In this document: in pieces, positions 2,695 through 43,074 of the stretch
How positions within the stretch are numbered: the first letter of the stretch is position 1
Layout of the letters: each line of letters starts with the position of its first letter
Source of the DNA: an uncultured Fidelibacterota bacterium
GTDB lineage: Bacteria; Fidelibacterota; Marinisomatia; Marinisomatales; Marinisomataceae
Reading direction: 5' to 3'
NCBI GenBank assembly: GCA_902578385.1
Contig: CACHCR010000002.1
Location: 65,873-129,872, forward strand
DNA length: 64,000 bases
Made by a program: the position numbers and the translations under genes
The notes under the pieces: model-generated
The model's input: the letters and a program-made list of their open reading frames with translations, nothing else
Told to the model about the DNA's origin: nothing
Database searches by the model: none

Positions 2695-4794
2695 TTGAGC
2701 AAAGTTTTACAAGATTCTAATTCTTTAGATACACCAATACAATTTATCAAGGGCGTTGGTCCAAAAAGAGCTAAAGTTTTAGAATCATTAAATATTTTTA
2801 CAATTAAAGACCTTTTGTATTATTTCCCTAGAAAATATTTAGACAGAACTTCTCTTTCAACAATCGGATCCATAAATGAAGGAGATGAAGTGAATCTGGT
2901 TGGAAGAGTCAAATCTGTAAATCTAAAAAAAATGAAAAAAGGTAATTTTGTAACAGCAAATGTTGCAGATCATACTGGCTCTATTATGTTGATGTGGTTT
3001 AATGCAGCTGATTACATTCATCAATCATTAAAAGTTGGAGATTTATTAGCAATGCATGGAAAAGTTGCAACTTATCAAGGAAGCCCACAAATAGTGCACC
3101 CAGAGTATGATAAATTAAATGCAAATGAGATTTCTTTAACTACTGGGTTTATCATTCCAGTTTATCCATTAACTGAAGATTTAAAAAAATCAGGACTTGA
3201 TAACAGAAATTTAAGAAAAATAATTTATTTAGCTTTACAATCAGTTGAAGATATTGAAGATCATTTTGATAAAGATTTAAGAGATAATTTTGAAATAGAA
3301 GATTTAAATATTTCATTAAGAAATATTCATTATCCAAAAAATTTTGAATCATTAGATAAATCAATTCATAGATTAAAATATGATGAACACTTTTTCTTGC
3401 AATTATTACTTGCTTTAAGAAAGCAAAAAATTAAAGAAAATAAGTATGACTCAATAAAATTCAAGACTATTAGTTATAATAAAATACTAAAAAATTTAGA
3501 TTTCGAATTAACTGGAAGTCAGCAACTTTCATTGCGAGAAATCGTTGATGATTTTTTGTCAGAAAATCCTATGAATCGAATGATACAAGGCGATGTTGGA
3601 TGTGGGAAAACAATTGTCTCAATTCTTGCATCAGCAATTGTTGTTGATAATAATTATCAAGTTGCAATAATGGCTCCTACAGATCTTCTTTCAAAGCAAT
3701 TATATAAAAATTTTAAATCTTACTTTGATTCTATTGGAATTGAATGTTCTTTATTAGTTGGAAGCTTAAAATCAAAAGAAAAAAATAATGTTTTAGAGGA
3801 AATTAAATCTGGAAATTCCAATATAATTATTGGAACGCATGCACTTTTTCAGAATGATGTTAAGTTTAAAAATTTAGGTTTTGTTGTTATAGATGAACAA
3901 CATAGATTTGGTGTCAATCAAAGGCAAAAATTGTTGGCGAAATCTACAAACCCAAATCTTATGGCCATGACAGCAACTCCTATTCCAAGAACATTAGCAA
4001 TAACATATAATGGCGATATGGATTTATCAATTATTGATGAATTACCGAAAAATAGGCCTGAAATTCATACATCATATATTGATAAAGATAATTTATCAAC
4101 TGCATTTAATTTTATTAGAGAAAAAGTTGAAGATGGTGGACAGACAATAATAGTTTACCCTTTAATCAATGAGAGTGAAAAACAAGATCTATCAGCTGCT
4201 GTTGAATCTTATGAATATTTAAGGGATAATATTTTTCCTGATATTAAAGTTGGTTTAATGCATGGAAAATTAGACGATGAAAATAAGAATAATGAGATGC
4301 AAAGTTTTATGAAAGGTGATATAGATATTTTAGTTTCAACTACAGTTGTAGAGGTTGGAATTGATAATCCTAATGTAAATGTAATGCTTATAAATAATTC
4401 TGAGAGATTTGGTTTGAGTCAACTCCACCAGCTTCGCGGAAGAGTAGGAAGAGGAACATTAGAAAGTTATTGTCTTTTATGTAGTGATAGTGAATCACCT
4501 ACTACAAAAGAGAGATTAAGTATTATTGTAAACTCAAGAAATGGATTTGAAATTGCAGATGAGGATTTAAAATTAAGAGGTCCTGGGGAGTTTTTTGGAG
4601 AAAAACAAAGTGGATTTGTCAAATTTAAAATTGCAGATTTAATTACGGATGGTCCAATTATAAGAAATGCTCGAATGAATGCTTTTGAAATTATAAAGAA
4701 TGATGCAAATTTGACCCAAAATAATCATTTAATGATTAAACAAAAATTTGATGATGAATATTTACAACTTTTTTTAAAAACAACAGTAAACTGA
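2695..4794 (+). CDS. recG: ATP-dependent DNA helicase RecG
   Basis: KGVGPKR wedge start, QGDVGCGKT, DEQHRFG, TATPIPRT, QLRGRVGRG, DLKLRGPGE; TTG start. Confidence 0.97.
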   Translation: MSKVLQDSNSLDTPIQFIKGVGPKRAKVLESLNIFTIKDLLYYFPRKYLDRTSLSTIGSINEGDEVNLVGRVKSVNLKKMKKGNFVTANVADHTGSIMLMWFNAADYIHQSLKVGDLLAMHGKVATYQGSPQIVHPEYDKLNANEISLTTGFIIPVYPLTEDLKKSGLDNRNLRKIIYLALQSVEDIEDHFDKDLRDNFEIEDLNISLRNIHYPKNFESLDKSIHRLKYDEHFFLQLLLALRKQKIKENKYDSIKFKTISYNKILKNLDFELTGSQQLSLREIVDDFLSENPMNRMIQGDVGCGKTIVSILASAIVVDNNYQVAIMAPTDLLSKQLYKNFKSYFDSIGIECSLLVGSLKSKEKNNVLEEIKSGNSNIIIGTHALFQNDVKFKNLGFVVIDEQHRFGVNQRQKLLAKSTNPNLMAMTATPIPRTLAITYNGDMDLSIIDELPKNRPEIHTSYIDKDNLSTAFNFIREKVEDGGQTIIVYPLINESEKQDLSAAVESYEYLRDNIFPDIKVGLMHGKLDDENKNNEMQSFMKGDIDILVSTTVVEVGIDNPNVNVMLINNSERFGLSQLHQLRGRVGRGTLESYCLLCSDSESPTTKERLSIIVNSRNGFEIADEDLKLRGPGEFFGEKQSGFVKFKIADLITDGPIIRNARMNAFEIIKNDANLTQNNHLMIKQKFDDEYLQLFLKTTVN

Positions 4795-32652: not shown

Positions 32653-32936
32653 TGGATTTATTTTCACATTCATGGCTTCCATTCATATATCAGTATGGAT
32701 TCGGTATACTTATTTTTGGTGGAGGTCTTTTTGCTATATTTAAAGCATATGGCGGAAAAGAATTTTGGAATCAATATAAAATATGGATTCAAATTTTGAT
32801 ATGGGGATTCATTTATGTTACATCAATTCATTTACTGATGACTATCTCAGCGCTAAATGATTATCCTCAACTTTATATAGTTATTTTATCCTTATACATA
32901 TTTAATGTGTTTTTATTAACTAAGAAGATCACATGA
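32652..32936 (+). CDS. Small membrane protein (about 3 TM) coupled to the SSS transporter
   Basis: Hydrophobic 94-aa ORF; stop overlaps the symporter ATG. Confidence 0.7.
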   Translation: MDLFSHSWLPFIYQYGFGILIFGGGLFAIFKAYGGKEFWNQYKIWIQILIWGFIYVTSIHLLMTISALNDYPQLYIVILSLYIFNVFLLTKKIT

Positions 32937-34801
32937 ACACGATACCTACATCAGAATTATTTTGGGTGATTTTAACTGCTTATGTTTTCTTTGTCTTAGG
33001 TGCTGGATTATTCTTTGCTCGAAACAATCAATCAACGGAAGATTTTTTCTTTGGTGGTAGAAGATTTTCCTGGTGGTTAATTGGAATGTCGATGTTAGCA
33101 ACCGGAGTTGGTTCTCACAGTTTTGCTAAATATGCATCCAAAGGCTTTGAGTATGGATTTTCATCTACAATGACCTATATGAATGATTGGTTTTTTATGC
33201 CATTGTTATTATTTGGTTGGATTCCAATTATTTACTACATGCAAGTCAACTCTATTCCTGAATATTTTGAAAGAAGATTTAATTCCACTGTTAGAAATTT
33301 ATCTACTATTACGATGCTTTTATATCTTATCGGATATATCGGTATTGGGTTATTAGCTCTCGGGTCTTTATTACAACCAATATTGGGATGGGAAATCAAT
33401 ACGATTATTATTGTGGTTGCTATTATCTCTGGTACTTATGTATCTCTAGGTGGACAAACGGCTATCATCTTTACAGATTTTTTACAAGGAGTTATTCTAT
33501 TATTTGCAGGGTTATTAATTTTTGGTTTAGGTCTTGCATATATAGGCGGATTTGATCTTTTCTGGAGCAATTTATCAACAACAAATAAATTACCATTAGC
33601 TGATTTTAATTCACCACCTGACTTTAATTTTGTTGGAATTTTCTGGCAAGATGGTGTAGTAGGTTCAGTGGGATTTGCATTTATGAATCAGGCTGTAATT
33701 ATGAGATTCTTAGCCTCACGATCTGTTATTCATGCTAGAAGGGCAACCATGATGAACGTATTGGTTTTCTTGCCAATTGGAACAGTAGCTGTTTCAAATT
33801 CTGGTTGGCTTGCTAGGGCTATTGAGAATATATCCCCTGGATTAATTACAGATTTACTTCCCAATGGAAATGCAAATGGTGTATTTACAGTGGTTGCATC
33901 TTTAGTTGCAAATTCAGAAGCAATCTTCGCATTTTTGGTTGCTGCGGTAGTAGCAGCATTAATGTCTAGTTTGGACTCTCAAATTAATGCATCAGCAGCT
34001 GTTGCTGTAAACGATGTATACACGCCACTGAGTAAGAATCCTTCTGAAAAAACACGCTTAAGAGTGTCAATGTTTACTTCTTTGCTTGTCACTTTTGTTG
34101 GGATTCAAGCAGCATTTTTATTTGCACAATATGGCACTATTTATGAAGCTCATGGAGCATTTCATAGTGTAGTAACTCCACCAATGGTTACGGTTATTTT
34201 CCTTGGCATTTGCTGGACACGTTATTCATCAAAAGCAGCTGTGTTAACGTTTGTGCTAGGTGCAGCATTCATTTTTCTTGGGATCGAGTATCCTCAAACA
34301 TTAGTTCAGCCTTTTTCTCATGGGATAGAATATGTTGAAGCAAAACCATGGTCGTATATTAGAGCCTTATATAATGTTGTCGCATGTGTTTCAATAGGAA
34401 TTATTGTAACCCTACTTACTACAAAACCAAATCAATCGCACTATGAACAAATTAAAGGATTAACTCTTTGGACTATTAAAGATGGCCCAACATTCTTTAA
34501 AGGTTCAGAGGTGAATGAAAATTCAGGAAGTAAAATCACCTTTGATGGCGATATGATTAAAGTTGTCGATGACACAGAAAATAAAATATATTTACCAGCA
34601 GATTTGATGAAAGATCTTGGTGCAAAAGAAGGAGATTTTGCATATATATCTGATACAAGATGGTACTTGGGTGGAATTAAGTCAACTCACGCCTACATTG
34701 GAAAAATGTCATCAGGTAATAAAATCGAGATCTCTAAAAATGTACAGAACCATGGTCAATTCGATCCTTCAAAAAAATTATTTATTGAACTCGAATTATA
34801 A
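32933..34801 (+). CDS. Sodium:solute symporter (SSS) with C-terminal soluble domain
   Basis: DFFFGGR, SIPEYFERRF, GGQTAIIFTDFLQ, AALMSSLDS..N. Confidence 0.92.
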   Translation: MNTIPTSELFWVILTAYVFFVLGAGLFFARNNQSTEDFFFGGRRFSWWLIGMSMLATGVGSHSFAKYASKGFEYGFSSTMTYMNDWFFMPLLLFGWIPIIYYMQVNSIPEYFERRFNSTVRNLSTITMLLYLIGYIGIGLLALGSLLQPILGWEINTIIIVVAIISGTYVSLGGQTAIIFTDFLQGVILLFAGLLIFGLGLAYIGGFDLFWSNLSTTNKLPLADFNSPPDFNFVGIFWQDGVVGSVGFAFMNQAVIMRFLASRSVIHARRATMMNVLVFLPIGTVAVSNSGWLARAIENISPGLITDLLPNGNANGVFTVVASLVANSEAIFAFLVAAVVAALMSSLDSQINASAAVAVNDVYTPLSKNPSEKTRLRVSMFTSLLVTFVGIQAAFLFAQYGTIYEAHGAFHSVVTPPMVTVIFLGICWTRYSSKAAVLTFVLGAAFIFLGIEYPQTLVQPFSHGIEYVEAKPWSYIRALYNVVACVSIGIIVTLLTTKPNQSHYEQIKGLTLWTIKDGPTFFKGSEVNENSGSKITFDGDMIKVVDDTENKIYLPADLMKDLGAKEGDFAYISDTRWYLGGIKSTHAYIGKMSSGNKIEISKNVQNHGQFDPSKKLFIELEL

Positions 34802-34875: not shown

Positions 34876-34948
34876 TCCGGAGTAGCTCAGTTGGTAGAGC
34901 GAGTGACTGTTAATCACCAGGTCGGGGGTTCGAGTCCCTCCTCCGGAG
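34876..34948 (+). tRNA. tRNA-Asn(GTT), CCA not encoded
   Basis: Acceptor stem TCCGGAG/CTCCGGA, D-arm GCTC/GAGC, loop CTGTTAA, T-loop TTCGAGT, discriminator G. Confidence 0.97.
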
Positions 34949-34953
34949 CATCT

Positions 34954-35649
34954 ATGTCAGATAAAAAAAATATAAAATTAGTGATTATTGAAGATGACAA
35001 AGATATTCGCGAATTACTTTCATATAATATTTCAAGTTTAGGCTACCAAGTGCATTCATTTTCAAATGGAGAATCTGGACTAAAGTATCTTAGAAATAAT
35101 AAGTCCAATTTGGTTCTTTTAGATTTAATGCTTCCAGGTATTAATGGATACGATATTTGTAGAATTATCAAAAGTGACCCCAAATTAAAAAATCTTTTGA
35201 TAATAATGCTTACAGCTAAAGGAAGTGAAGCTGACATTGTAAAAGGTTTGGAATTGGGAGCAGATGATTACATAGTTAAACCATTTTCTGGTTCAGTTCT
35301 TTCTGCTAGAATTGCTGCTGTTTTGAGAAGAGTCAAAAAAACAGATTCAAAAATTTTAAACTTTGGTAGCTTAAAAATAGATATTGGTAAACATCAAGTC
35401 AGTGTAAATAATTCTATAATAGATTTAACATTTAGTGAGTTTGAAATTTTAAGTATGCTTGCCCAAAATCCTGGTTTGGTGTATACCAGATCTCAAATAA
35501 TTGACTCTATTAGAGGAGATAATTATCCTGCTACTGATAGAACAATTGATTTTCAAATTGTAGGATTAAGAAAAAAATTATCTACTGCAAAAAAATATAT
35601 TAAAACTATTAGGGGTATAGGATATAAGTTTAATGATGAAAAAGATTAA
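34954..35649 (+). CDS. phoB: OmpR/PhoB-family response regulator, probable PhoB
   Basis: IEDD, LLDLMLPG, GLELGADDY.VKPF, winged helix RTID..I..LRKK, TIRGIGY. The true start is the ATG at 34954; neighbours are phoR/phoU-like. Confidence 0.8.
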   Translation: MSDKKNIKLVIIEDDKDIRELLSYNISSLGYQVHSFSNGESGLKYLRNNKSNLVLLDLMLPGINGYDICRIIKSDPKLKNLLIIMLTAKGSEADIVKGLELGADDYIVKPFSGSVLSARIAAVLRRVKKTDSKILNFGSLKIDIGKHQVSVNNSIIDLTFSEFEILSMLAQNPGLVYTRSQIIDSIRGDNYPATDRTIDFQIVGLRKKLSTAKKYIKTIRGIGYKFNDEKD

Positions 35650-36673
35650 TACTTCGATTAATGATTTAAAGTCAGTTCTTGATACTATACAATCGGGTGT
35701 TATTTCTATAAATAAAGATAAATTTTTAATTTTTTATAACGATAAAGCAAAAAGAATATTTTCTTTATCTGAAGCATTCATTGGAAAACCAATATCAGGT
35801 ATTGTTAGAAATCCCAAAATATTAAACTTCATTGAGCAATCAATGAAAGCTATTGAAAATCAAAATGAAATTAAAACCTTTGAAGAAGACTTTTTTATTG
35901 ATGCTTCTCAATCCTTTGATGCAAAAGTAACTTTTTTGAAAGTTGAAGCATCCGCTAAGACAAAATATTTAATTGTTTTTAATGATATATCATCTATCAC
36001 ACAAGCACAGAACTCACAAAGAGAGTTTGTTGAAAATGTATCTCATGAACTTAGAACTCCAATCACTTCTATTTTAGCAGCGACTGAAACTATTCCTACA
36101 GAAACCCCATTTAGAGATATAATAATTAGACAATCTTTGAGAATGAATGAAATAATTGATGATTTGTTGCAGCTTTCTATGCTAGAAAACAATTCTGATT
36201 TTAATATTCATAAAGAAGAGATTAGTCTGAGCGATTTAATTTTATTTTCGGTTGAATCTGTAAAACACCTCGCGGATAAAAAAAATATAGATATTGAACA
36301 GCCTAAAGATTTTAATTGTTGCAATTTAAAGGTTGATATAAGCCTTATTCAAAATGCATTATCCAATATTTTAAAAAATGCAATTATGTATTCAAATCAA
36401 AATAGCAAAATCAATATTATTTTGTCCAGTCAAAAAGATTCATGCATTATTGAAATAATTGATAATGGAAAAGGCATAAAAAAAGAAAATATTAAGAATA
36501 TATTTAATAGATTTTTTAGAGAAGAGTCCTCAAGAAGTAGAGATTATGGAGGTTTAGGCTTGGGATTACCAATTGTAAAAAAAATTCTGAATCTACACAA
36601 TGGAGATATCACCATACATAGTGAGATAGACAAAGGAACTTCTGTAAAAATATTTTTACCCATTCAAATGTAA
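35633..36673 (+). CDS. phoR: Cytoplasmic PAS-HisKA-HATPase sensor kinase, PhoR-like
   Basis: PAS at the N-terminus, FVENVSHELRTP H-box, N.LKNA, DNGKG, F.RFFR..SR, GLGL; no TM segment. Confidence 0.75.
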   Translation: MMKKINTSINDLKSVLDTIQSGVISINKDKFLIFYNDKAKRIFSLSEAFIGKPISGIVRNPKILNFIEQSMKAIENQNEIKTFEEDFFIDASQSFDAKVTFLKVEASAKTKYLIVFNDISSITQAQNSQREFVENVSHELRTPITSILAATETIPTETPFRDIIIRQSLRMNEIIDDLLQLSMLENNSDFNIHKEEISLSDLILFSVESVKHLADKKNIDIEQPKDFNCCNLKVDISLIQNALSNILKNAIMYSNQNSKINIILSSQKDSCIIEIIDNGKGIKKENIKNIFNRFFREESSRSRDYGGLGLGLPIVKKILNLHNGDITIHSEIDKGTSVKIFLPIQM

Positions 36674-36682
36674 TCCTAACAT
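36661..36682 (+). promoter_or_regulatory. Candidate Pho-box-like 11-bp direct repeat upstream of the TonB receptor
   Basis: CATTCAAATGT-AATCCTAACAT. Confidence 0.5.
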
Positions 36683-36723
36683 AAGCTTTTTACATTTCTG
36701 CAAATTTAAAAGGAGATGTAAAA

Positions 36724-39579
36724 TTGAGAATACTTCAAGTATTATTTTTATCGTTAAGTTTCGTTTTTTGTCAAGATTTATCTGTTCTAACTGGTACTGT
36801 CACCGATAAGGACTCCGGAAAAGCACTAGTCGGTGTAAATATCATTATTGAAGATTCAGATAATGGTACTGCTTCCGATTTAAATGGCTCCTATACAATT
36901 TTTATTCAACCTGGTGAAGTTGTATTAAATGTTTCTTATATAGGTTATAAGTCAGAAAGATTCTCAATAGGTCTAATCGAAGGACAAAATAATTTTAATA
37001 TTGCTTTATCAATAAATGCCGTACAGTTATCTGGGGTTGAGGTGACTGGTCAAGCAGTCGATGGTAGCGATATAAGCATGATGATTGACAGAAAAGAATC
37101 ATCTAATGTTGAAGATGCAATTAGTTTAGAAAGAATGTCTAAAGCGGGGGATTCTAATGCAGCAGACGCTTTTAGAAGAGTGACTGGAGTTTCTGTAGTT
37201 GATAATATTGTTGCTGTAAGAGGACTGGGTGATAGGTATACAAATACCCAATTAAATAATTCTGATTTAGCTACCCCAGAACCTGAAAAAAGAGCTGTTC
37301 CTTTAGATCTTTTTTCCATTTCAATTATTTCTGGATTGAGTGCAAAAAAAACTTTTACTCCTGACTTACCTGGAACTTTTGCTGGAGGGGTTGTAAATAT
37401 TAAAACTTTAGCATATCCAGATAGAAAAATAATGAAGCTAAAATTTGGCGCTGGTACAATATCATCAATTGATAATAGTAGATTTAGAACTTCGAATAAT
37501 GGAATTAATTTCTTTGGTATAGATGGAAATGACAATAAAATGCCTGACGTTCCAAAAGATTTTTGGTTGTCAGAGTTTAGATATCCATTAACATCTGGAT
37601 CAACTAATCCACAAAACTATACTTCTTCACAATGGCGTGAATTACTATCAATAAATACAAATAAATTCAAACAAAATTATCGTTTTAAATCAAAAAGTAC
37701 CAGTCCTCAGATTTCATTTGGTGTTGAAAATGGTCAAAAGTTTAATAGTTCAAATGGTAATTATGAGTATGGATACTTTATAAATTATTCCTTTGGTAAT
37801 TCTTATGATTTTGAAGATGAAAATATTGGTAGATATTATGATAATACAACACTATCAAGATATTTAAATCTCCAAAGAGAAACATCAATTTATAATGCCA
37901 ACCATGTATTAAACATGAGTACAGGTTTAAAATATTTACAAGATCACAAGTTTAAATTATCTTTTTTATTTAGTCATAAAGCTAGCGATAAATTATCTTA
38001 TGCTTCTGGGGTACTTAAAAATTTAGAAGATGCAGTATCTATTCAACATTATTATAGTGAAAAATCTCTATCAAATTTGTCTCTGGAAGGGAATAGCATA
38101 TTTTATTCTTCAAATCCAAGTGAACTTGATTGGTCAATAAATTTAGGTTCTGCCTCATTGTACGAACCAGATGTTGCCTCTCATACTTACTCTAGACAAA
38201 GCACATTAAATCCTTACACCGTTGATGTAAGCAGTACGTCACCTGGTTTAAGATTTTGGGCTGATGGAGATGATACAAATAATAGTTTAGATTTGTCTTA
38301 CAAAGTTCAATTTGAAAACTTTCAATTGAAAAGTGGACTTAGAATTCAACAAAGAGATAGAACTTTTAAGAAAAGAATTTTTTATTATACTCATTCCACC
38401 GGGACATGGCCAAACAATATTCTTGAGGTTAATGATAATGATTTTGGAAGATCATTTGACGAAGCAAACTTTTTTGATGGGAATAGTGGTTTAATTATTG
38501 TTGAAGAAGCAGCTCAGCTTGCAAGAGCTGCATACAATGCGGATGAAAAGACAAATGCAATTTTCTCAATGATTGAAAGAAAATTTGATTCTTTTGATAT
38601 ACCAATTACTTTTATTGGTGGTATTAGATATGAAATGTATACATTAGACCTTAGGCCATATAATACCGTTACTGGTCAAACGTATGTTAACCCTTACAAC
38701 AATCCTACACAAGAGCCAACACTTGTAGATATTGATGAAAATTATGTACTTCCTTCTATCAATTTTATTTTAGATACTTCAAAGGATTCAAAAGTACGAT
38801 TTTCGTTATCTCAAACTGTTGCAAGAGCAGAATTTAGAGAATATGCACCTCTTGAATATCAGGCATTTTATGGAGATGATCAATATATTGGAGTCCCGAC
38901 ACTAGAGCAATCAGAAGTCACAAATTTTGATCTAAGATACGAGGCATATCCATCCGTAGGTGAAGTATGGTCGGTTTCATTATTTGCTAAAGATATGCAA
39001 AAACCCGTTGAAGAGGTATTATTAGTAAATGTTGAAAGATCATATAGTATGTATAATAATGCAAAATCTGCAGAGATTTATGGATTAGAGTTTGATATTA
39101 GGAAGAAGATAAATTTATTTCCATCATCAAGCGCTACCCAAATTTTAACTGCAAACGCTACACTATCATCATCAGATGTTGAGGTAAATGATTTTGTGGT
39201 TTCTCCATTTGCAGTGACTCCAATTGAAGATCAAACTAATAGGCCATTAATGGGTCATTCAGAATTTTTAGGGAATCTTTCCTTGGATACAATTCTTAGT
39301 TCAGGATATGAAATTTCACTTTCTTATAATGGTTTTAGTGAAAGAATTATTAAAGTAGGGGATGTAACAGGACATTATTTTGAAGCACCTTTTCATTCTT
39401 TAAATTTTACTTCAAAGAAAAAATTTGAAAATGGATTATCAGTTAGTGTTAAAGCAAAGAATCTTTTAAACAGCAATATTAAACACTATCTAAAAACTGA
39501 TACTGGAAATAAGTTAGATACAAAGATGCTTGAACCAGGTATATCTATATCTTTAAGTATGACTTACGATTTTAATTAA
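36724..39579 (+). CDS. TonB-dependent receptor with CarboxypepD_reg-like N-terminal domain
   Basis: Signal peptide, GTVTD..G..L.GVNI/SYIGY, plug VRGLGDRY/GGVVNI, beta-barrel ending YDFN; AGGAG RBS with TTG start. Confidence 0.92.
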   Translation: MRILQVLFLSLSFVFCQDLSVLTGTVTDKDSGKALVGVNIIIEDSDNGTASDLNGSYTIFIQPGEVVLNVSYIGYKSERFSIGLIEGQNNFNIALSINAVQLSGVEVTGQAVDGSDISMMIDRKESSNVEDAISLERMSKAGDSNAADAFRRVTGVSVVDNIVAVRGLGDRYTNTQLNNSDLATPEPEKRAVPLDLFSISIISGLSAKKTFTPDLPGTFAGGVVNIKTLAYPDRKIMKLKFGAGTISSIDNSRFRTSNNGINFFGIDGNDNKMPDVPKDFWLSEFRYPLTSGSTNPQNYTSSQWRELLSINTNKFKQNYRFKSKSTSPQISFGVENGQKFNSSNGNYEYGYFINYSFGNSYDFEDENIGRYYDNTTLSRYLNLQRETSIYNANHVLNMSTGLKYLQDHKFKLSFLFSHKASDKLSYASGVLKNLEDAVSIQHYYSEKSLSNLSLEGNSIFYSSNPSELDWSINLGSASLYEPDVASHTYSRQSTLNPYTVDVSSTSPGLRFWADGDDTNNSLDLSYKVQFENFQLKSGLRIQQRDRTFKKRIFYYTHSTGTWPNNILEVNDNDFGRSFDEANFFDGNSGLIIVEEAAQLARAAYNADEKTNAIFSMIERKFDSFDIPITFIGGIRYEMYTLDLRPYNTVTGQTYVNPYNNPTQEPTLVDIDENYVLPSINFILDTSKDSKVRFSLSQTVARAEFREYAPLEYQAFYGDDQYIGVPTLEQSEVTNFDLRYEAYPSVGEVWSVSLFAKDMQKPVEEVLLVNVERSYSMYNNAKSAEIYGLEFDIRKKINLFPSSSATQILTANATLSSSDVEVNDFVVSPFAVTPIEDQTNRPLMGHSEFLGNLSLDTILSSGYEISLSYNGFSERIIKVGDVTGHYFEAPFHSLNFTSKKKFENGLSVSVKAKNLLNSNIKHYLKTDTGNKLDTKMLEPGISISLSMTYDFN

Positions 39580-39580
39580 A

Positions 39581-39613
39581 AATTCAAACATAATTCTAAC
39601 AAACTTCAAATAG
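39581..39613 (+). promoter_or_regulatory. Candidate Pho-box-like triple 11-bp direct repeat
   Basis: AATTCAAACAT-AATTCTAACAA-ACTTCAAATAG. Confidence 0.55.
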
Positions 39614-39689
39614 CAAACTCAATTTGTAAATCTATTTTTTCATAGTGGAATTTTTCCGCACATTTTAATGGTAAAAAAAGGATAAGAAA

Positions 39690-41273
39690 ATGAATAGTAA
39701 AAAAATCATATTATCGATTTTTGCAAGTGTATTTCTTTTTACATCATGTGAAGACGATTCAGAGACTGTAGATAATACTACTCTTCCTCCATCTGCACAG
39801 GCATTCAACGCTGAGCATGTGATGGGAACATTAACCTATAATTTTTCTATTTCAGATTCTCAGGCTGCATCTGTTGGTACTGGTACTGGAGTAGCATATT
39901 CATGGGATTTTAATGGTGAAGCAACTGCTGTTGCTGCAAGTGGTTCACACACATTCTCTTCAAGAGGTTTAAAAACTGTTACATTAACAGTTACTACAAC
40001 CGGTTTAGATGGTACTACAACTTTGACAGATTCATATTCAATGGATATGAATGTTGAAAGAAGTTTGTACGGAGATGTTACTTCAGATTTAGATTTAGAT
40101 GGTGATTATGTACTTTCTGGCCAACTTCAAGTCAAAGATGGTGCAACCTTAACAATTGCAGCTGGATCTAACATTTATGCATTATCAGATGATGGTAATG
40201 GAAACGCTCCTGCAATCGTAGTATGGCAAGGTGGAATGATTGAAGCAGTAGGTACTGCTAGTGCTCCAATTATCATGACATCAATTATTGCAAGAGACGA
40301 ACCAGACAGACTTCCAATTGTTGGTGGTAGAGCATGGGGTGGATTAATTGTCTGTGGTTATGCACCAATTCAAGGCGGTGGAACTAGAACCGTTGAGGGT
40401 GTTGCTTCAGTACCTTATGGAGGTACAGATGCTGCTGATGACTCTGGAACATTAAGATATGTTTCAGTTCGTTATGGTGGTAGAGCAATTGCTCCAGATA
40501 ATGAAATTAATGGTATTACATTAGCTGGTGTTGGAACTGGAACAGAAGTTAGTTACTGTGAAGTAGCTTATAACTTTGATGACGGTTTTGAAATGTTTGG
40601 TGGAACTGTTGATTTAAGATACTGTATGGTATACAAAGTTGGCGACGACGGATTTGATACAGACACCGGATACCAAGGAACAGGACAATTCCTAGTTGTA
40701 GTTAGAGGAGCAACCTCAAATAGAGGTCATGAAATGGATGGAAGAAACAGCAGCCAAGCTGCAGACGATTCATTTCCTAAATTTTCTAATGTAACAATTG
40801 TAGGAAATAACAGCGGATCTTCTGAAGATGAGTCTTTAAGATTAAGAGAAGGAACTGCTGGCCAATTCCAAAATTATATGTTAGTAAATCAGCAAAGAAG
40901 AGGCTTCCGTGCAACTAATGAAGATGGAAATTTAGATGGAACATTTGTTGTAAATGGTTCAACTCCTCCTTCAGATGATGCTGATGGAAGATACATCTGG
41001 TTAGACCCTTTAAATGTTATGGATGATGTACCTGAGCCTGCAACAGTTGCAGCTACTGATGGAACAGATCCGGGTGCTAGCTTTACATTTAATGTACAAG
41101 ATGGTAATACTGGTGTAACAGAAGCAAACTTGCTTCCAACAACCGAGTTTACAGGATCAACTCCAACTGAAGCTAGTATGGATGCATCTGCAACATTTGT
41201 TGGTGCTTTAAAAGCTGGTTTCAACGATGATGCTTTTGATGGCTGGACAGTATGGTCGGAAGAAAGTCAATAA
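39690..41273 (+). CDS. Acidic surface lipoprotein with PKD-like domain and right-handed beta-helix
   Basis: LFTSC lipobox followed by EDD, YSWDF PKD motif, EINGITL.GVG.GT, DDGFE/DDGFDTD repeats. Confidence 0.8.
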   Translation: MNSKKIILSIFASVFLFTSCEDDSETVDNTTLPPSAQAFNAEHVMGTLTYNFSISDSQAASVGTGTGVAYSWDFNGEATAVAASGSHTFSSRGLKTVTLTVTTTGLDGTTTLTDSYSMDMNVERSLYGDVTSDLDLDGDYVLSGQLQVKDGATLTIAAGSNIYALSDDGNGNAPAIVVWQGGMIEAVGTASAPIIMTSIIARDEPDRLPIVGGRAWGGLIVCGYAPIQGGGTRTVEGVASVPYGGTDAADDSGTLRYVSVRYGGRAIAPDNEINGITLAGVGTGTEVSYCEVAYNFDDGFEMFGGTVDLRYCMVYKVGDDGFDTDTGYQGTGQFLVVVRGATSNRGHEMDGRNSSQAADDSFPKFSNVTIVGNNSGSSEDESLRLREGTAGQFQNYMLVNQQRRGFRATNEDGNLDGTFVVNGSTPPSDDADGRYIWLDPLNVMDDVPEPATVAATDGTDPGASFTFNVQDGNTGVTEANLLPTTEFTGSTPTEASMDASATFVGALKAGFNDDAFDGWTVWSEESQ

Positions 41274-41325
41274 TATTAATTTAACTTATAGTAATATAAC
41301 ATCTCCTATTGTGAATATTACTTAG

Positions 41326-41358
41326 AAAAGAGGGAAGATTTTTCTTCCCTCTTTTTTT
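41326..41358 (+). terminator. Rho-independent terminator after the lipoprotein gene
   Basis: AAAAGAGGGAAGA-TTTT-TCTTCCCTCTTTT plus T tract. Confidence 0.88.
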
Positions 41359-41363
41359 ATTTC

Positions 41364-41385
41364 AATCCTAACATAATCCTAAATA
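41364..41385 (+). promoter_or_regulatory. Candidate Pho-box-like 11-bp direct repeat upstream of phoU
   Basis: AATCCTAACAT-AATCCTAAATA, followed by TACTTT/TATATT -10-like elements. Confidence 0.6.
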
Positions 41386-41415
41386 TTTTTTTGTACTTTT
41401 CCTATATTATGGAGT

Positions 41416-42069
41416 ATGAATTTGCCTGACAGAATACAAGATTTAAACTATAATTTATTAAAACTAAGCTCGTTAGTTGAAACGAATATTAAAGATGCGT
41501 TTAGTGCAATAGAAAAAAAAGATTTAGATAAATCTAAAACTGTAGTCAATGTTGATTCTAAAATAAATATGATGGAAGTCGAAATAGAAAAAGAAGTCAA
41601 CGAAATTATTGAAAAATTCCATCCTACTGATTCAGATTTGCGATATTTATTAGCTGCTTTGAAAATTAATAATGAGCTTGAAAGAATAGGAGATTATGCA
41701 ACCAATATAGCTAGAAATACCCAGTTTATGGTTGAAAATCCAGATTTAGAATTACCTAAAATTCTAGCACATTCAGCTGAAACTTTAACTTCAATGTTAA
41801 ATGATGTTATTAATGCCTTTATTTTATCAGATGAAGCAAAAGCATTTAAAGTTATTGAAATGGATGATATTATTGATAACAATAATAGAGAGATATTTAC
41901 TCTTTTTAAAGAGAAAGCCAAAAGTAATTCCGAATTCTTAAGACAATTTATTGTTTTTACGAACATTTCTCGATACGTTGAAAGAGCTGCAGATCACACA
42001 ACTAATATAGCTGAGGATATTATTTTTCAAATTAATGGTAAAATAGTAAGACACGATGAAACAATTTAA
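41416..42069 (+). CDS. phoU: Phosphate signalling protein PhoU
   Basis: Two repeats: ELERIGDYATNIA and YVERAADHTTNIAE; DLR motif; GGAG RBS. Confidence 0.95.
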   Translation: MNLPDRIQDLNYNLLKLSSLVETNIKDAFSAIEKKDLDKSKTVVNVDSKINMMEVEIEKEVNEIIEKFHPTDSDLRYLLAALKINNELERIGDYATNIARNTQFMVENPDLELPKILAHSAETLTSMLNDVINAFILSDEAKAFKVIEMDDIIDNNNREIFTLFKEKAKSNSEFLRQFIVFTNISRYVERAADHTTNIAEDIIFQINGKIVRHDETI

Positions 42070-42090
42070 ATATTTAATAATCAGCTTATA

Positions 42091-43074
42091 ATGGACTTTT
42101 TAACATTATGGTCTTTTTTAGGATTTTTGTTTGCTGTGTATGCAGTTACTGCGAATGATAGTATTCAGACTCTAGGTACTTACATCGCATCTAACAGAGC
42201 TGACGTCAAGTGGTACTGGATGTTTGCTTATATGGGATCAATTTTTGTATTTACTATGATTCAAGGCTTTAATGCTGGAGACCCTGCTTTTGGTAGATTA
42301 ACCGAATTCCCAGAAATTGAAATCATGTGGTATCATGCATTAGCACCACTTGTTTTAGTTGTTTTAACTAGAGTAAAAATTCCTGTATCAACTACTTTCT
42401 TAGTTTTATCTGTTTTTGCTGCTAGCGTTGATGGTCTTATGGAAAAAATGCTTTTAAAAAGTTTTGTTGGATATGGAGTTTCATTTGTTTTTGCATTTGC
42501 TGCATGGTATTTCATAAGTAAATATATTTTATATGAGGGTGAAAAAGGTAATAATAAGTACAATAATTACTGGAGAACTGCCCAATGGATTACAACTGGA
42601 TGGCTTTGGTCAACTTGGCTTTCACATGATATGGCAAACATTATGGTTTTCTTACCAAGATACTCATCAGTCCCTACATTAGGTTTTCAAATACTTGTAG
42701 TTGGAATGATGTTACTAGGATTAGCTTTTATGTTTTATGAAAGGGGTGGAAAAATACAAGAAATTGTATTAACTAAAACCAACACAAGATATGTTCGTTC
42801 TGCTACTTTAGTTGATTTAGTATATGTATTTGTACTTTATTACTTTAAAGAAGTCAATGACCTTCCTATGAGTACTACATTTGTATTTATGGGCATGTTA
42901 GCAGGAAGGGAAATTGGTATTATCTTTGCTCAAGGCTATGGAACTCTTAGGTATACCAATAAAAACGTAAAAGCTATTTTTCCAATGCTTTATTCTGACT
43001 TTTTTAGACTTATGCTTGGCTTAGCTATTAGCGTTTCTCTTGCTTATGGAATTCAATGGTATTCCAACCTATAA
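42091..43074 (+). CDS. Multi-pass membrane protein, divergent PiT-like phosphate transporter candidate
   Basis: About 9-10 TM segments; twin motifs ANDSIQT/HDMAN and PVSTT/PMSTT recall PiT inverted repeats; lies 21 nt after phoU. Confidence 0.6.
   Translation: MDFLTLWSFLGFLFAVYAVTANDSIQTLGTYIASNRADVKWYWMFAYMGSIFVFTMIQGFNAGDPAFGRLTEFPEIEIMWYHALAPLVLVVLTRVKIPVSTTFLVLSVFAASVDGLMEKMLLKSFVGYGVSFVFAFAAWYFISKYILYEGEKGNNKYNNYWRTAQWITTGWLWSTWLSHDMANIMVFLPRYSSVPTLGFQILVVGMMLLGLAFMFYERGGKIQEIVLTKTNTRYVRSATLVDLVYVFVLYYFKEVNDLPMSTTFVFMGMLAGREIGIIFAQGYGTLRYTNKNVKAIFPMLYSDFFRLMLGLAISVSLAYGIQWYSNL

Follow-up and report, generated by a model that had tools for sequence, protein, structure and literature searches.

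Tandem 11-bp repeats before three island genes as predicted Pho boxes of Marinisomatales (Marinimicrobia/SAR406)

Three sets of tandem repeats in the window, i.e. the whole analysed stretch of 64,000 nucleotides, are highly likely to be Pho boxes, i.e. predicted operators for the PhoB-type response regulator encoded next to them in Marinisomatales (Marinimicrobia/SAR406). A preliminary description of the same DNA had already read them as 11-bp direct repeats that replace the -35 element. This reading fits the period, the target genes, a 9-nt geometry relative to a promoter box, the presence of a sole Trans_reg_C regulator and the conservation within the genus. It is the context of the repeats, namely their position and conservation, that supports it, and not their frequency. 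The predicted mechanism is ordinary; the consensus is new.

Tandem 11-mers of the AATYCWAACAT type were read from the window sequence at 36661-36682, 39581-39613 and 41364-41385, in agreement with the preliminary description. As had also been claimed, these sites precede the genes for a TonB-dependent receptor, a lipoprotein and phoU, which start on the + strand at 36724, 39690 and 41416, respectively. The core had been given as C(T/A)AACAT. A conserved core is indeed present, but it is better described as the hexamer C-T/A-A-A-C-A with an AATY-type spacer. Counted in this way, the three sites hold two, four and two units.

Pho box 1 (36665..36681, + strand) consists of the hexamers 36665-36670 and 36676-36681, which are 11 bp apart from start to start. 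The first hexamer overlaps the last codons of the preceding kinase gene, and the site as a whole overlaps the kinase stop codon (ORF end 36673). In an alignment of six genus members the second unit is invariant and the first is variable at its last two positions. Pho box 2 (39585..39623, + strand) contains four hexamers, one exactly every 11 bp, that start at 39585, 39596, 39607 and 39618. Three units had been noticed here previously; the third is real, and the fourth (39618-39623) had been missed. An alignment of five species shows this region to be kept through the fourth unit and diverged beyond. In the genome G033 all four units are unlike those of the window, yet they stay within the permitted hexamer types. 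Pho box 3 (41368..41384, + strand) is formed by the hexamers 41368-41373 and 41379-41384, the second of which proved to be a real unit; among five genus members, one has a single change in this 22-mer. Sites 1 and 3 show no evident third or fourth unit. These two sites share an identical 13-mer, as described earlier, and the 946,280-bp genome has no other copy of it. Comparison within the genus shows units that are either invariant or altered only within the allowed hexamer types, next to spacer DNA that diverges.

Each array is followed on the + strand by a TAnnTTT-type promoter box: at 36691..36698 for the receptor gene and at 41394..41401 for phoU, both 9 nt past the last hexamer, and at 39633..39640 for the lipoprotein gene, 9 nt past the fourth hexamer. 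In 11 of 22 arrays, those of the three window sites among them, the distance from the last hexamer to the start of TA..TT is exactly 9 nt (8/19 without the window), and the other 20 offsets tested yielded 2 together. We infer that the TAnnTT box is a promoter element and that the array lies where a -35/-33 element would be found. Since the flavobacterial -7 box occupies positions -12 to -5 (PMC9723704), transcription of the receptor gene would start near 36703. A small hairpin (39645..39659, + strand), a terminator-like match, lies where the lipoprotein mRNA is predicted to have its 5' end; a stem is found at the same place in 5/5 species, with differing stem sequences. The lipoprotein gene ends in an intrinsic terminator (41324..41357, + strand) with a 15-bp stem and a subsequent T run. 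Its fold energy is -21.2 kcal/mol (z -4.7), and 0/200 shuffles fold as well. This terminator is missing from the list of the consensus terminator scan.

Arrays in related genomes and the adjacent regulator

Other families of Marinisomatales also have arrays of two to five C-T/A-A-A-C-A hexamers with exact 11-bp spacing before their orthologous TonB receptor. Because the 11-bp spacing is exact, the hexamers would lie on one face of the helix. Like arrays are found in relatives upstream of pstS operons, one PiT gene, porin-like genes and phoB. Footprinting of orthologous promoters, as suggested in the preliminary description, revealed conservation both across families and within the genus. The motif had also been regarded as lineage-specific; it is not confined to the genus and is common to the order Marinisomatales and one Chitinivibrionales MAG.

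Over 193 kb from 22 loci of other families, period 11 yielded 15 arrays of at least three units vs 1 in reversed-sequence controls, whereas periods 9, 10, 12 and 13 gave 3, 1, 0 and 0 vs 3, 1, 0 and 0 in the controls. Sixteen non-redundant upstream regions of the receptor were compared: 11 carry four to five units and that of L061 carries two, three are without an array, and one has merely a chance-like pair. The upstream regions of pstS operons or porins that were read in relatives all (6/6) contain two to three units. From an order-wide search for the exact pattern, the first 30 loci listed were taken, and intergenic matches with a gene at most 350 nt downstream left 13 promoters; of these promoters, three belong to pst operons, two to TonB receptors, one to PHO4/PiT, four to porin-like genes and three to others. 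Upstream of phoB in G074 and G127, boxes obey the 9-nt rule. No Pho box is present upstream of the phoB-like gene in the window's genome.

This gene (34954..35649, + strand, with the ATG read at 34954) encodes a response regulator with a receiver domain and a winged-helix Trans_reg_C domain (Pfam). PhoB is the best of 90 NCBIfam families that match the regulator. The scores are 215.9 bits against PhoB TIGR02154 and 205.4 bits against NF053854, both below the respective cut-offs of 296.2 and 270. Because the PhoB score does not reach its cut-off, the regulator is named PhoB-like here, and its assignment relies on gene context. Relatives have orthologues of it in linkage with pstSCAB-phoU, and in 4/4 relatives checked the cluster runs on into pstS-pstC-pstA-pstB-phoU. 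The gene that follows (35633..36673, + strand) encodes a short phoR-like histidine kinase of 346 aa with PAS-HisKA-HATPase architecture (Pfam), in which an N-terminal membrane or sensor part would not fit. The best NCBIfam matches of the kinase are PnpS and PhoR, both below cut-off.

Alternatively, the arrays may be the site of another protein that co-regulates phosphorus genes, either a different regulator or, as an upstream element, an alternative sigma factor. The adjacent regulator does score below the PhoB family cut-off, and its being the sole Trans_reg_C (OmpR/PhoB-type) match is a count for the window's genome, not for the larger relatives. Nevertheless, two to five tandem repeats at an exact 11-bp period are the signature of the OmpR/PhoB family of winged-helix proteins (PMC4415409), and the one such protein in the window's genome is encoded beside the sites. 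Furthermore, the arrays accompany the phoB-phoR pair across families, and a sigma element would not recur four times. We consider an operator of some other protein quite unlikely.

The phosphorus island

On its left side, the five-gene Pho island is bordered by tRNA-Asn (GTT) at 34876..34949 (+ strand, ARAGORN), and the phoB-like gene begins 4 nt past this tRNA. A listed ORF start at 34891 is not real; its frame runs through the tRNA. Downstream of the kinase gene, the TonB-dependent outer-membrane receptor (36724..39579, + strand) shows CarboxypepD_reg, Plug and barrel domains (Pfam, NCBIfam), and orthologues with 31-39% identity occupy the same cluster in other families. The surface lipoprotein (39690..41273, + strand) contains a PKD domain, its sole Pfam match, and after it a conserved domain (about 290 aa) without a sequence match in the PDB. 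This domain is predicted to be a beta-helix from a model with a mean pLDDT of 62 (70-95 in the core), for which Foldseek found weak matches to beta-helix enzymes and tailspikes (best E 2e-4, TM just 0.2-0.3). The product of phoU (41416..42069, + strand) matches NCBIfam TIGR02135 with 169.8 bits, above the cut-off of 130.25.

A membrane protein gene (42091..43074, + strand) follows 21 nt past phoU and is a core gene of the genus. The gene probably encodes a short phosphate permease similar to PiT/PHO4. Pfam gave no match for the product even at E 10, and BLASTP gives an E of 7e-4 to a PF01384 protein of L190. PF01384 is carried by 3 among the 120 listed homologues (73% identical), and the Atlas lead for this protein is 0.89. 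The PiT-like gene is present at 78-80% identity in genomes that lack the island, and in four such genomes of the same genus it directly follows tRNA-Asn. The island, with phoB-phoR and P-uptake genes, occurs in 7/38 genomes of the genus. A search of the window's genome (946,280 bp, 31% G+C, 75.7% complete) did not reveal pstS and yielded no pstB match at or above the cut-off.

Since pstSCAB appears to be gone and the kinase to have lost its membrane part, PhoB could still bind while the sites of this genus are relics or act in another way, e.g. by repression or as a roadblock. The missing pstS and pstB matches of this 75.7%-complete genome would agree with such a loss, as would the kinase length of 346 aa vs 588 aa for the orthologous ORF in L032 and the presence of just two units at sites 1 and 3. 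Yet all 5-6 island-bearing species retain the units and TAnnTT boxes amid nearby spacers that have diverged, which argues for present selection. In addition, relatives with complete pst operons have the same array-to-box geometry, and an array upstream of a promoter box is in the position of an activator. It is very improbable that the sites are relics or act otherwise.

If the repeats are Pho boxes, the short PhoR-like kinase would phosphorylate PhoB at low phosphate. Dimers of PhoB would then bind the direct repeats head to tail at the would-be -33/-35 position and recruit RNA polymerase. Three units would be switched on in this way: the TonB receptor, the putative beta-helix lipoprotein, and phoU together with the PiT-like permease. 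PhoU would presumably exert feedback onto the kinase. The proposed module of the genus is the five-gene island beside tRNA-Asn, without pstSCAB. At site 3 the layout, a terminator and then the box, is that of the pstS-operon box in the relatives L081 and L082, and box 3 is probably a former pstS-operon box that now drives phoU.

A more far-reaching proposal is tentative, and we regard it as rather doubtful in its entirety. In this streamlined SAR406 genus, for which no pstSCAB was found in a 75.7%-complete genome, phosphate sensing and uptake might reside on a portable island of five genes (phoB, a short phoR for a soluble kinase, TonB receptor, beta-helix lipoprotein and phoU) between tRNA-Asn and the core PiT-like gene. 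The permease would be under Pho-box control, and PhoU would report on the PiT-like permease and not on PstB. The receptor-lipoprotein pair, which is found beside phoBR across Marinisomatales and also in a Chitinivibrionales MAG, might then constitute an undescribed outer-membrane capture system for a phosphorus compound.

Frequency of the repeats

The preliminary description had proposed a genome-wide comparison with background. On simple counts this failed to reveal an excess for the window, the genome, the genus or 233 genomes. AATYCWAACAT occurs three times in the window vs a mean of 0.87, and 6/100 dinucleotide shuffles reach three (p about 0.06). Both strands of the 946,280-bp genome hold nine matches vs about nine expected from base composition; four of the other six lie inside ORFs and none is tandem. 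Arrays of at least three units number three in the window's genome vs three in the control. The exact two-unit pattern gave 138 matches in the 233 genomes vs about 223 in the backwards control, and 9 vs 24 in the window's genus. In a tandem-dimer scan the window sites are the top four of about 1.9 million positions, with a matrix built from those same sites. With an independent matrix from two distant loci only, site 2 is the best and site 3 the second best of 1,891,972 genome positions, and its maxima on shuffled genomes are 16.3-20.3 vs 17.2 for the real sites. For this genome, the regulon seems to comprise no more than the three island promoters.

The hexamer classes were chosen after the motif was seen, and the related genomes are not mutually independent. 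We judge the tandem form, the fixed 9-nt position relative to TAnnTT and the conservation in other families to be beyond chance. Although simple counts at chance level and the similar matrix scores of shuffled genomes would suit functionless A+T-rich repeats arising by chance in a 31% G+C genome, there is hardly any probability of this, since arrays recur at the orthologous place where receptor identity is 31-39%, the YAATY spacer recurs in 24/138 order-wide matches, and both the period-11 specificity and the fixed 9-nt distance contradict it.

Comparison with known Pho systems

Marinimicrobia (SAR406) are an abundant ocean group without any cultured member; consequently, their gene regulation is readable from sequence alone. 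The boxes described here would be the first Pho-regulator site for this uncultured ocean phylum: no Pho box description for it was found in the literature covered, which did not extend to subscription journals. With a defined Pho box, the phosphate-starvation regulon could be predicted for hundreds of genomes; the targets predicted here besides pst are the TonB receptor with the putative beta-helix lipoprotein, porin-like proteins and PiT. It should also aid the interpretation of metatranscriptomes from phosphate-poor waters. Moreover, a sister lineage is predicted to combine the TAnnTT-type promoter box known from Bacteroidota with a PhoB-type activator.

The E. coli PHO box is located just upstream of the downstream promoter box, as are the SAR406 arrays. 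The downstream box of SAR406 resembles the Bacteroidota TAnnTTTG -7 box, whereas that of E. coli is TATAAT. Unlike in E. coli, four-unit arrays are the rule before the receptor gene in SAR406. PHO boxes have an 11-nt unit, head-to-tail binding and a species-specific consensus (PMC4415409). The same paper describes the E. coli box, in a similar manner to ours, as at least two direct repeat units of 11 nt, each with a conserved and a less conserved part, and the DNA-binding domains of E. coli PhoB as arranged head to tail, with activation via contact to the sigma subunit. The conserved heptamer of E. coli is CTGTCAT (PMC4415409), in contrast to the hexamer C-T/A-A-A-C-A with an A/T-rich AATY-type spacer in SAR406. 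Streptomyces coelicolor differs by its GTTCACC consensus and high-G+C genome (PMC4415409) and by another phylum and sigma factor. Its PHO box is alike in that it is built of direct repeat units of 11 nt, which vary in number and conservation by promoter (PMC2275107 and PMC4415409). In SAR406 arrays the number of units likewise varies, from two to five.

The PhoP box of Bacillus subtilis is composed of hexamer repeats with a period of about 11 bp. Its hexamer TTAACA, mentioned in the preliminary description, differs from the commonest SAR406 hexamer at one position. Bacillus is Gram-positive and without outer-membrane receptor targets. Prochlorococcus and SAR11, which are streamlined marine bacteria, possess variable phosphate-acquisition islands, with phoB-phoR and P-uptake genes in only some genomes. 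In contrast to these, the content of the SAR406 island is a TonB receptor, a predicted beta-helix lipoprotein and phoU between tRNA-Asn and the PiT-like gene, with no pstSCAB. As in Prochlorococcus and SAR11, phoB-phoR and the P-uptake genes are present in part of the SAR406 genus, i.e. in 7/38 genomes.

Tandem repeats and their gene neighbourhood

Tandem repeats of the 11-mer AATYCWAACAT had been claimed in the preliminary description at 36661-36682, 39581-39613 and 41364-41385, and the sequence reads exactly so. These arrays (sites 1, 2 and 3) consist of hexamers of the type C-T/A-A-A-C-A spaced exactly 11 bp. They precede, in this order, the genes for a TonB-dependent receptor (36724-39579), a PKD lipoprotein (39690-41273) and phoU (41416-42069, above its NCBIfam cut-off). 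Upstream lie a sodium:solute symporter gene (32933-34801), tRNA-Asn (34876-34949), a phoB-like response regulator gene encoding receiver and winged-helix domains, and the gene of a PAS-HisKA-HATPase kinase (35633-36673). Downstream of phoU follows the gene of a 327-aa, putatively PiT-like membrane protein (42091-43074), and all these genes are on the + strand. The listed ORF start of the regulator runs through tRNA-Asn; the true start is the ATG at 34954. The best NCBIfam family is PhoB for the regulator, and the best families are PnpS and PhoR for the kinase, in each case below the curated cut-offs. The kinase (346 aa) begins directly with its PAS domain, and the orthologous ORF of a related locus (L032) encodes 588 aa with an additional N-terminal part; the kinase of the window's genus is apparently soluble and shortened. 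The window's genome, which is 75.7% complete, contains a single OmpR/PhoB-type regulator gene, and this gene adjoins the sites.

A hairpin with a T run at 41324-41357 (-21.2 kcal/mol, z -4.7) closes the lipoprotein unit just upstream of site 3. Hence, every site fronts its own transcription unit. A second, small hairpin (39645-39659) is found at the expected start of the lipoprotein mRNA. In 5 of 5 species a stem occurs in the same place with differing letters, which suggests a conserved 5' stem-loop that may serve as mRNA stabiliser or attenuator.

The conserved domain of the lipoprotein (~290 aa) has no match in Pfam and, by sequence, none in the PDB. Its predicted structure is confident in the core only and shows a weak likeness to beta-helix enzymes and tailspikes. 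Among the confirmed candidate stretches of the species-genome collection, 606 are related to the domain. They come from Bacteroidota, Poribacteria, Verrucomicrobiota and other groups, and a single protein often carries several copies in tandem (loci L085-L163). The 327-aa protein itself lacks a Pfam match as well. It carries two P-x-STTF motifs. Its close homologues in marine metagenomes exceed 7,600 in the set of candidates scored, with 73-82% identity among those listed and a PHO4 annotation in a few. The evidence for a PiT/PHO4-like permease, though thin, is consistent, and the protein may represent a very common family of short PiT-like permeases that Pfam mostly misses. A kinship with the porin-like proteins of relatives was also considered for this gene after phoU, and the proteins proved unrelated on comparison. 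In RNA libraries, 14 metatranscriptome runs contain 37-55% of the locus's sampled words. Contigs from four runs map to phoU and to the genes of the receptor, the lipoprotein and the permease-like protein; such contigs tell no starts, strand, levels or regulation, and may stem from DNA carry-over.

Chance expectation and conservation of the arrays

A genome-wide excess of the motif, implied by the preliminary description, did not appear: simple frequency tests on the window, the genome and 233 genomes of the order Marinisomatales show no enrichment and therefore cannot carry the Pho-box claim. The window contains three copies of the 11-mer where 0.87 are expected, a count reached in 6 of 100 shuffles. 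The 946,280-bp genome (31% G+C), counted on both strands, has nine matches, which is about the expectation by our own arithmetic from base composition; four of the other six matches are inside ORFs and none is tandem. Degenerate arrays of at least three hexamers are not enriched in the whole genome (3 vs 3 in reversed-sequence controls).

When tandem dimers were scanned over ~1.9 million positions, the top four were the reported sites, with a matrix derived from those sites themselves. No further intergenic tandem site was present among the best 45 of the 946-kb genome, and the best real-looking match outside the locus (contig C3, near 13981) is within the 3' end of an ORF. With a matrix drawn solely from ten units of two distant loci, sites 2 and 3 took ranks 1 and 2, and site 1 rank 14, among 1,891,972 positions. 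Equal scores arise in shuffled genomes (shuffle maxima 16.3-20.3); consequently, it is the location of the sites that is telling and not their score. The sites exceed chance by arrangement, not by counting.

The arrangement is conserved in most of the orthologous promoters read, a condition that the preliminary description had set. Among the 233 genomes, 30 have the lipoprotein domain, and several families share the gene order regulator-kinase-receptor-lipoprotein at receptor identities of 31-39%. Four to five hexamers at exactly 11 bp were found in 11 of 16 non-redundant upstream regions of the receptor. One further region has two clear units and one a chance-like pair inside an upstream gene. 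No array was seen in 3 of the 16 loci; two of these receptors closely follow another gene and are probably inside an operon. The commonest hexamers are CTAACA, CAAACA, CTAATA, CTCACA and close variants. In 22 loci (193 kb, both strands), a period of 11 yields 15 arrays of at least three units vs one in reversed controls, where the hexamer classes were set after the motif was seen and related genomes are not independent of each other. Periods of 9, 10, 12 and 13 yield 3, 1, 0 and 0 arrays in the same loci, equal to their controls.

Over 969 kb of sequence from many phyla, in 79 loci that encode the lipoprotein domain, 12 arrays of at least three units were counted vs six control arrays. Five Marinimicrobia-type loci together with one Chitinivibrionales locus account for ten of the 12. 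The remaining 73 loci, by title mostly Bacteroidota, Poribacteria and Verrucomicrobiota, contribute two arrays, which is control level, and thus the motif is not general to the FCB group. In the Chitinivibrionales MAG (L108), three arrays with the 11-bp period and hexamers of the same type, at 4670, 7062 and 12308, precede the lipoprotein gene, a DUF3450-ExbB-ExbB-TPR cluster (Ton system) and an ABC ATPase gene. This suggests that another FCB lineage has the same type of operator and places a Ton energising system under Pho control.

The island and the phosphate regulon

In four genomes of the order (G075, G074, G127 and G073), pstS is located just downstream of the regulator-kinase-receptor-lipoprotein cluster, and in 4 of 4 the gene order is pstS-pstC-pstA-pstB-phoU. 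All six upstream regions read there contain two to three units at 11 bp; four are promoters of pstS or MGS-pstS, one belongs to a second pstS copy and one to a porin-like gene. In two loci (L081, L082) the box comes after a terminator, as at site 3. A two-unit box is also present upstream of phoB in G074 and G127, with a weaker one in G075; none convincing was found upstream of phoB in G050, and none at the window's phoB, which begins 4 nt past the tRNA.

Across the order, the exact two-unit pattern has 138 matches, distributed over 82 of 233 genomes. The backwards control gives more (~223, a total made by hand), and hence most of the 138 are noise. The YAATY spacer of the window sites occurs in 24 of the 138, likewise counted by hand. 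In the first 30 loci listed (32 matches), crude ORF calls put 14 matches inside ORFs and 18 outside, 14 of the latter with a gene at most 350 nt downstream. These 14 represent 13 promoters: three of pst operons, two of TonB receptors, one of a PHO4/PiT gene, four of proteins with a signal peptide and a length of 308-312 aa (Porin_O_P matches one of them below threshold), and one each of a DUF5916/CBM9 protein, an NHL-repeat protein and an unknown protein. Within the window's genus, exact two-unit matches were noticed ~20 nt before an NHL-repeat gene (L179, genome G009) and before a 259-aa unknown gene (L183, genome G007). The match in G009 may well be chance, since this genome is without a Trans_reg_C match.

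The cluster is present in 7 of 38 genomes of the genus (G000, the window's own, and G012, G030, G010, G033, G028 and G007), and any OmpR/PhoB-type regulator in 9 of 38, one apiece. In four genomes of the genus without the cluster, tRNA-Asn is followed directly by the gene of the 327-aa membrane protein (78-80% identity) and the same downstream genes. Therefore, phoB, phoR, the receptor and lipoprotein genes and phoU (region 34876-42090) make up an insert of five genes between tRNA-Asn and a core gene. Among island-bearing species, island proteins are 87-97% identical vs 54-95% for flanking genes. No integrase was seen at the island. In one island-less genome (G005, L200), seven letters identical to the phoB start are found right behind tRNA-Asn; this remnant looks like a deletion scar. 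In three island-less loci (L199, L200 and L201), the gene of a different TonB receptor (~28% identity) separates the symporter gene from tRNA-Asn; this spot is empty in the window.

Neither pstS nor a pstB match reaching the cut-off was found in the 75.7%-complete genome, and phoU is retained. In four relatives of other families (L203-L206), the cluster is continued by pstSCAB-phoU. It seems that the high-affinity ABC transporter for phosphate was lost in the genus. The box at site 3 probably descends from a pstS-operon box after the loss of pstSCAB, because both share the layout of terminator, box and 9-nt spacing.

A 15.5-kb contig of another genome of the genus (G026, contig C2; L198 and L196) carries a primase-like gene with AEP/VapE-like domains beside a kinase gene, pstC, pstA, pstB, phoU and a regulator gene whose product is 43% identical to the window's. 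The contig, which has no array and looks foreign, was set aside; it may be a mobile element with phosphate genes or a foreign contig.

Promoter geometry and comparison with known PHO boxes

A constant distance separates the hexamer arrays of 11-bp period from a promoter-like box; the arrays precede phosphorus-acquisition genes and lie beside the sole PhoB-type regulator. In half of the arrays (11 of 22), the three window sites among them, this box, TA..TT, starts exactly 9 nt past the last hexamer. With the window left aside the 9-nt rule applies to 8 of 19 arrays, and all other offsets from 0 to 20 total two. By eye, several of the remaining arrays show the box in the same position with one letter changed.

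Units and TA..TT boxes are kept in alignments of five to six island-bearing species. Within the genus, site 1 has an invariant second unit and a first unit that varies at its last two positions only, and in the 22-mer of site 3 a single position differs, in one of five species. Site 2 is conserved through its fourth unit and diverges strongly thereafter. In G033, an island-bearing genome, all four units of site 2 are unlike the window's, yet each still fits the order-wide hexamer types.

We propose that at low phosphate the kinase would phosphorylate the regulator, which in this form would bind the arrays and activate the receptor, the lipoprotein, phoU and the downstream permease-like gene. 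No description of a Pho box for the phylum Marinimicrobia was found in the literature searched, whose coverage excludes most subscription journals. According to two papers (PMC4415409; PMC9306846), PHO boxes consist of 11-nt direct repeat units bound head to tail by the DNA-binding domains of the regulator, their consensus varies by species, and activation proceeds via the sigma subunit. The TA..TT box of the window and its relatives resembles the -7 box TAnnTTTG of flavobacteria, which for the housekeeping sigma factor spans -12 to -5 (PMC9723704). If this placement holds, transcripts would begin near 36703, 39645 and 41406, ~12 nt from the first base of each TAnnTT box, and a two-unit array would cover about -38 to -22, presumably the place of an upstream promoter element and of a PhoB-type activator.
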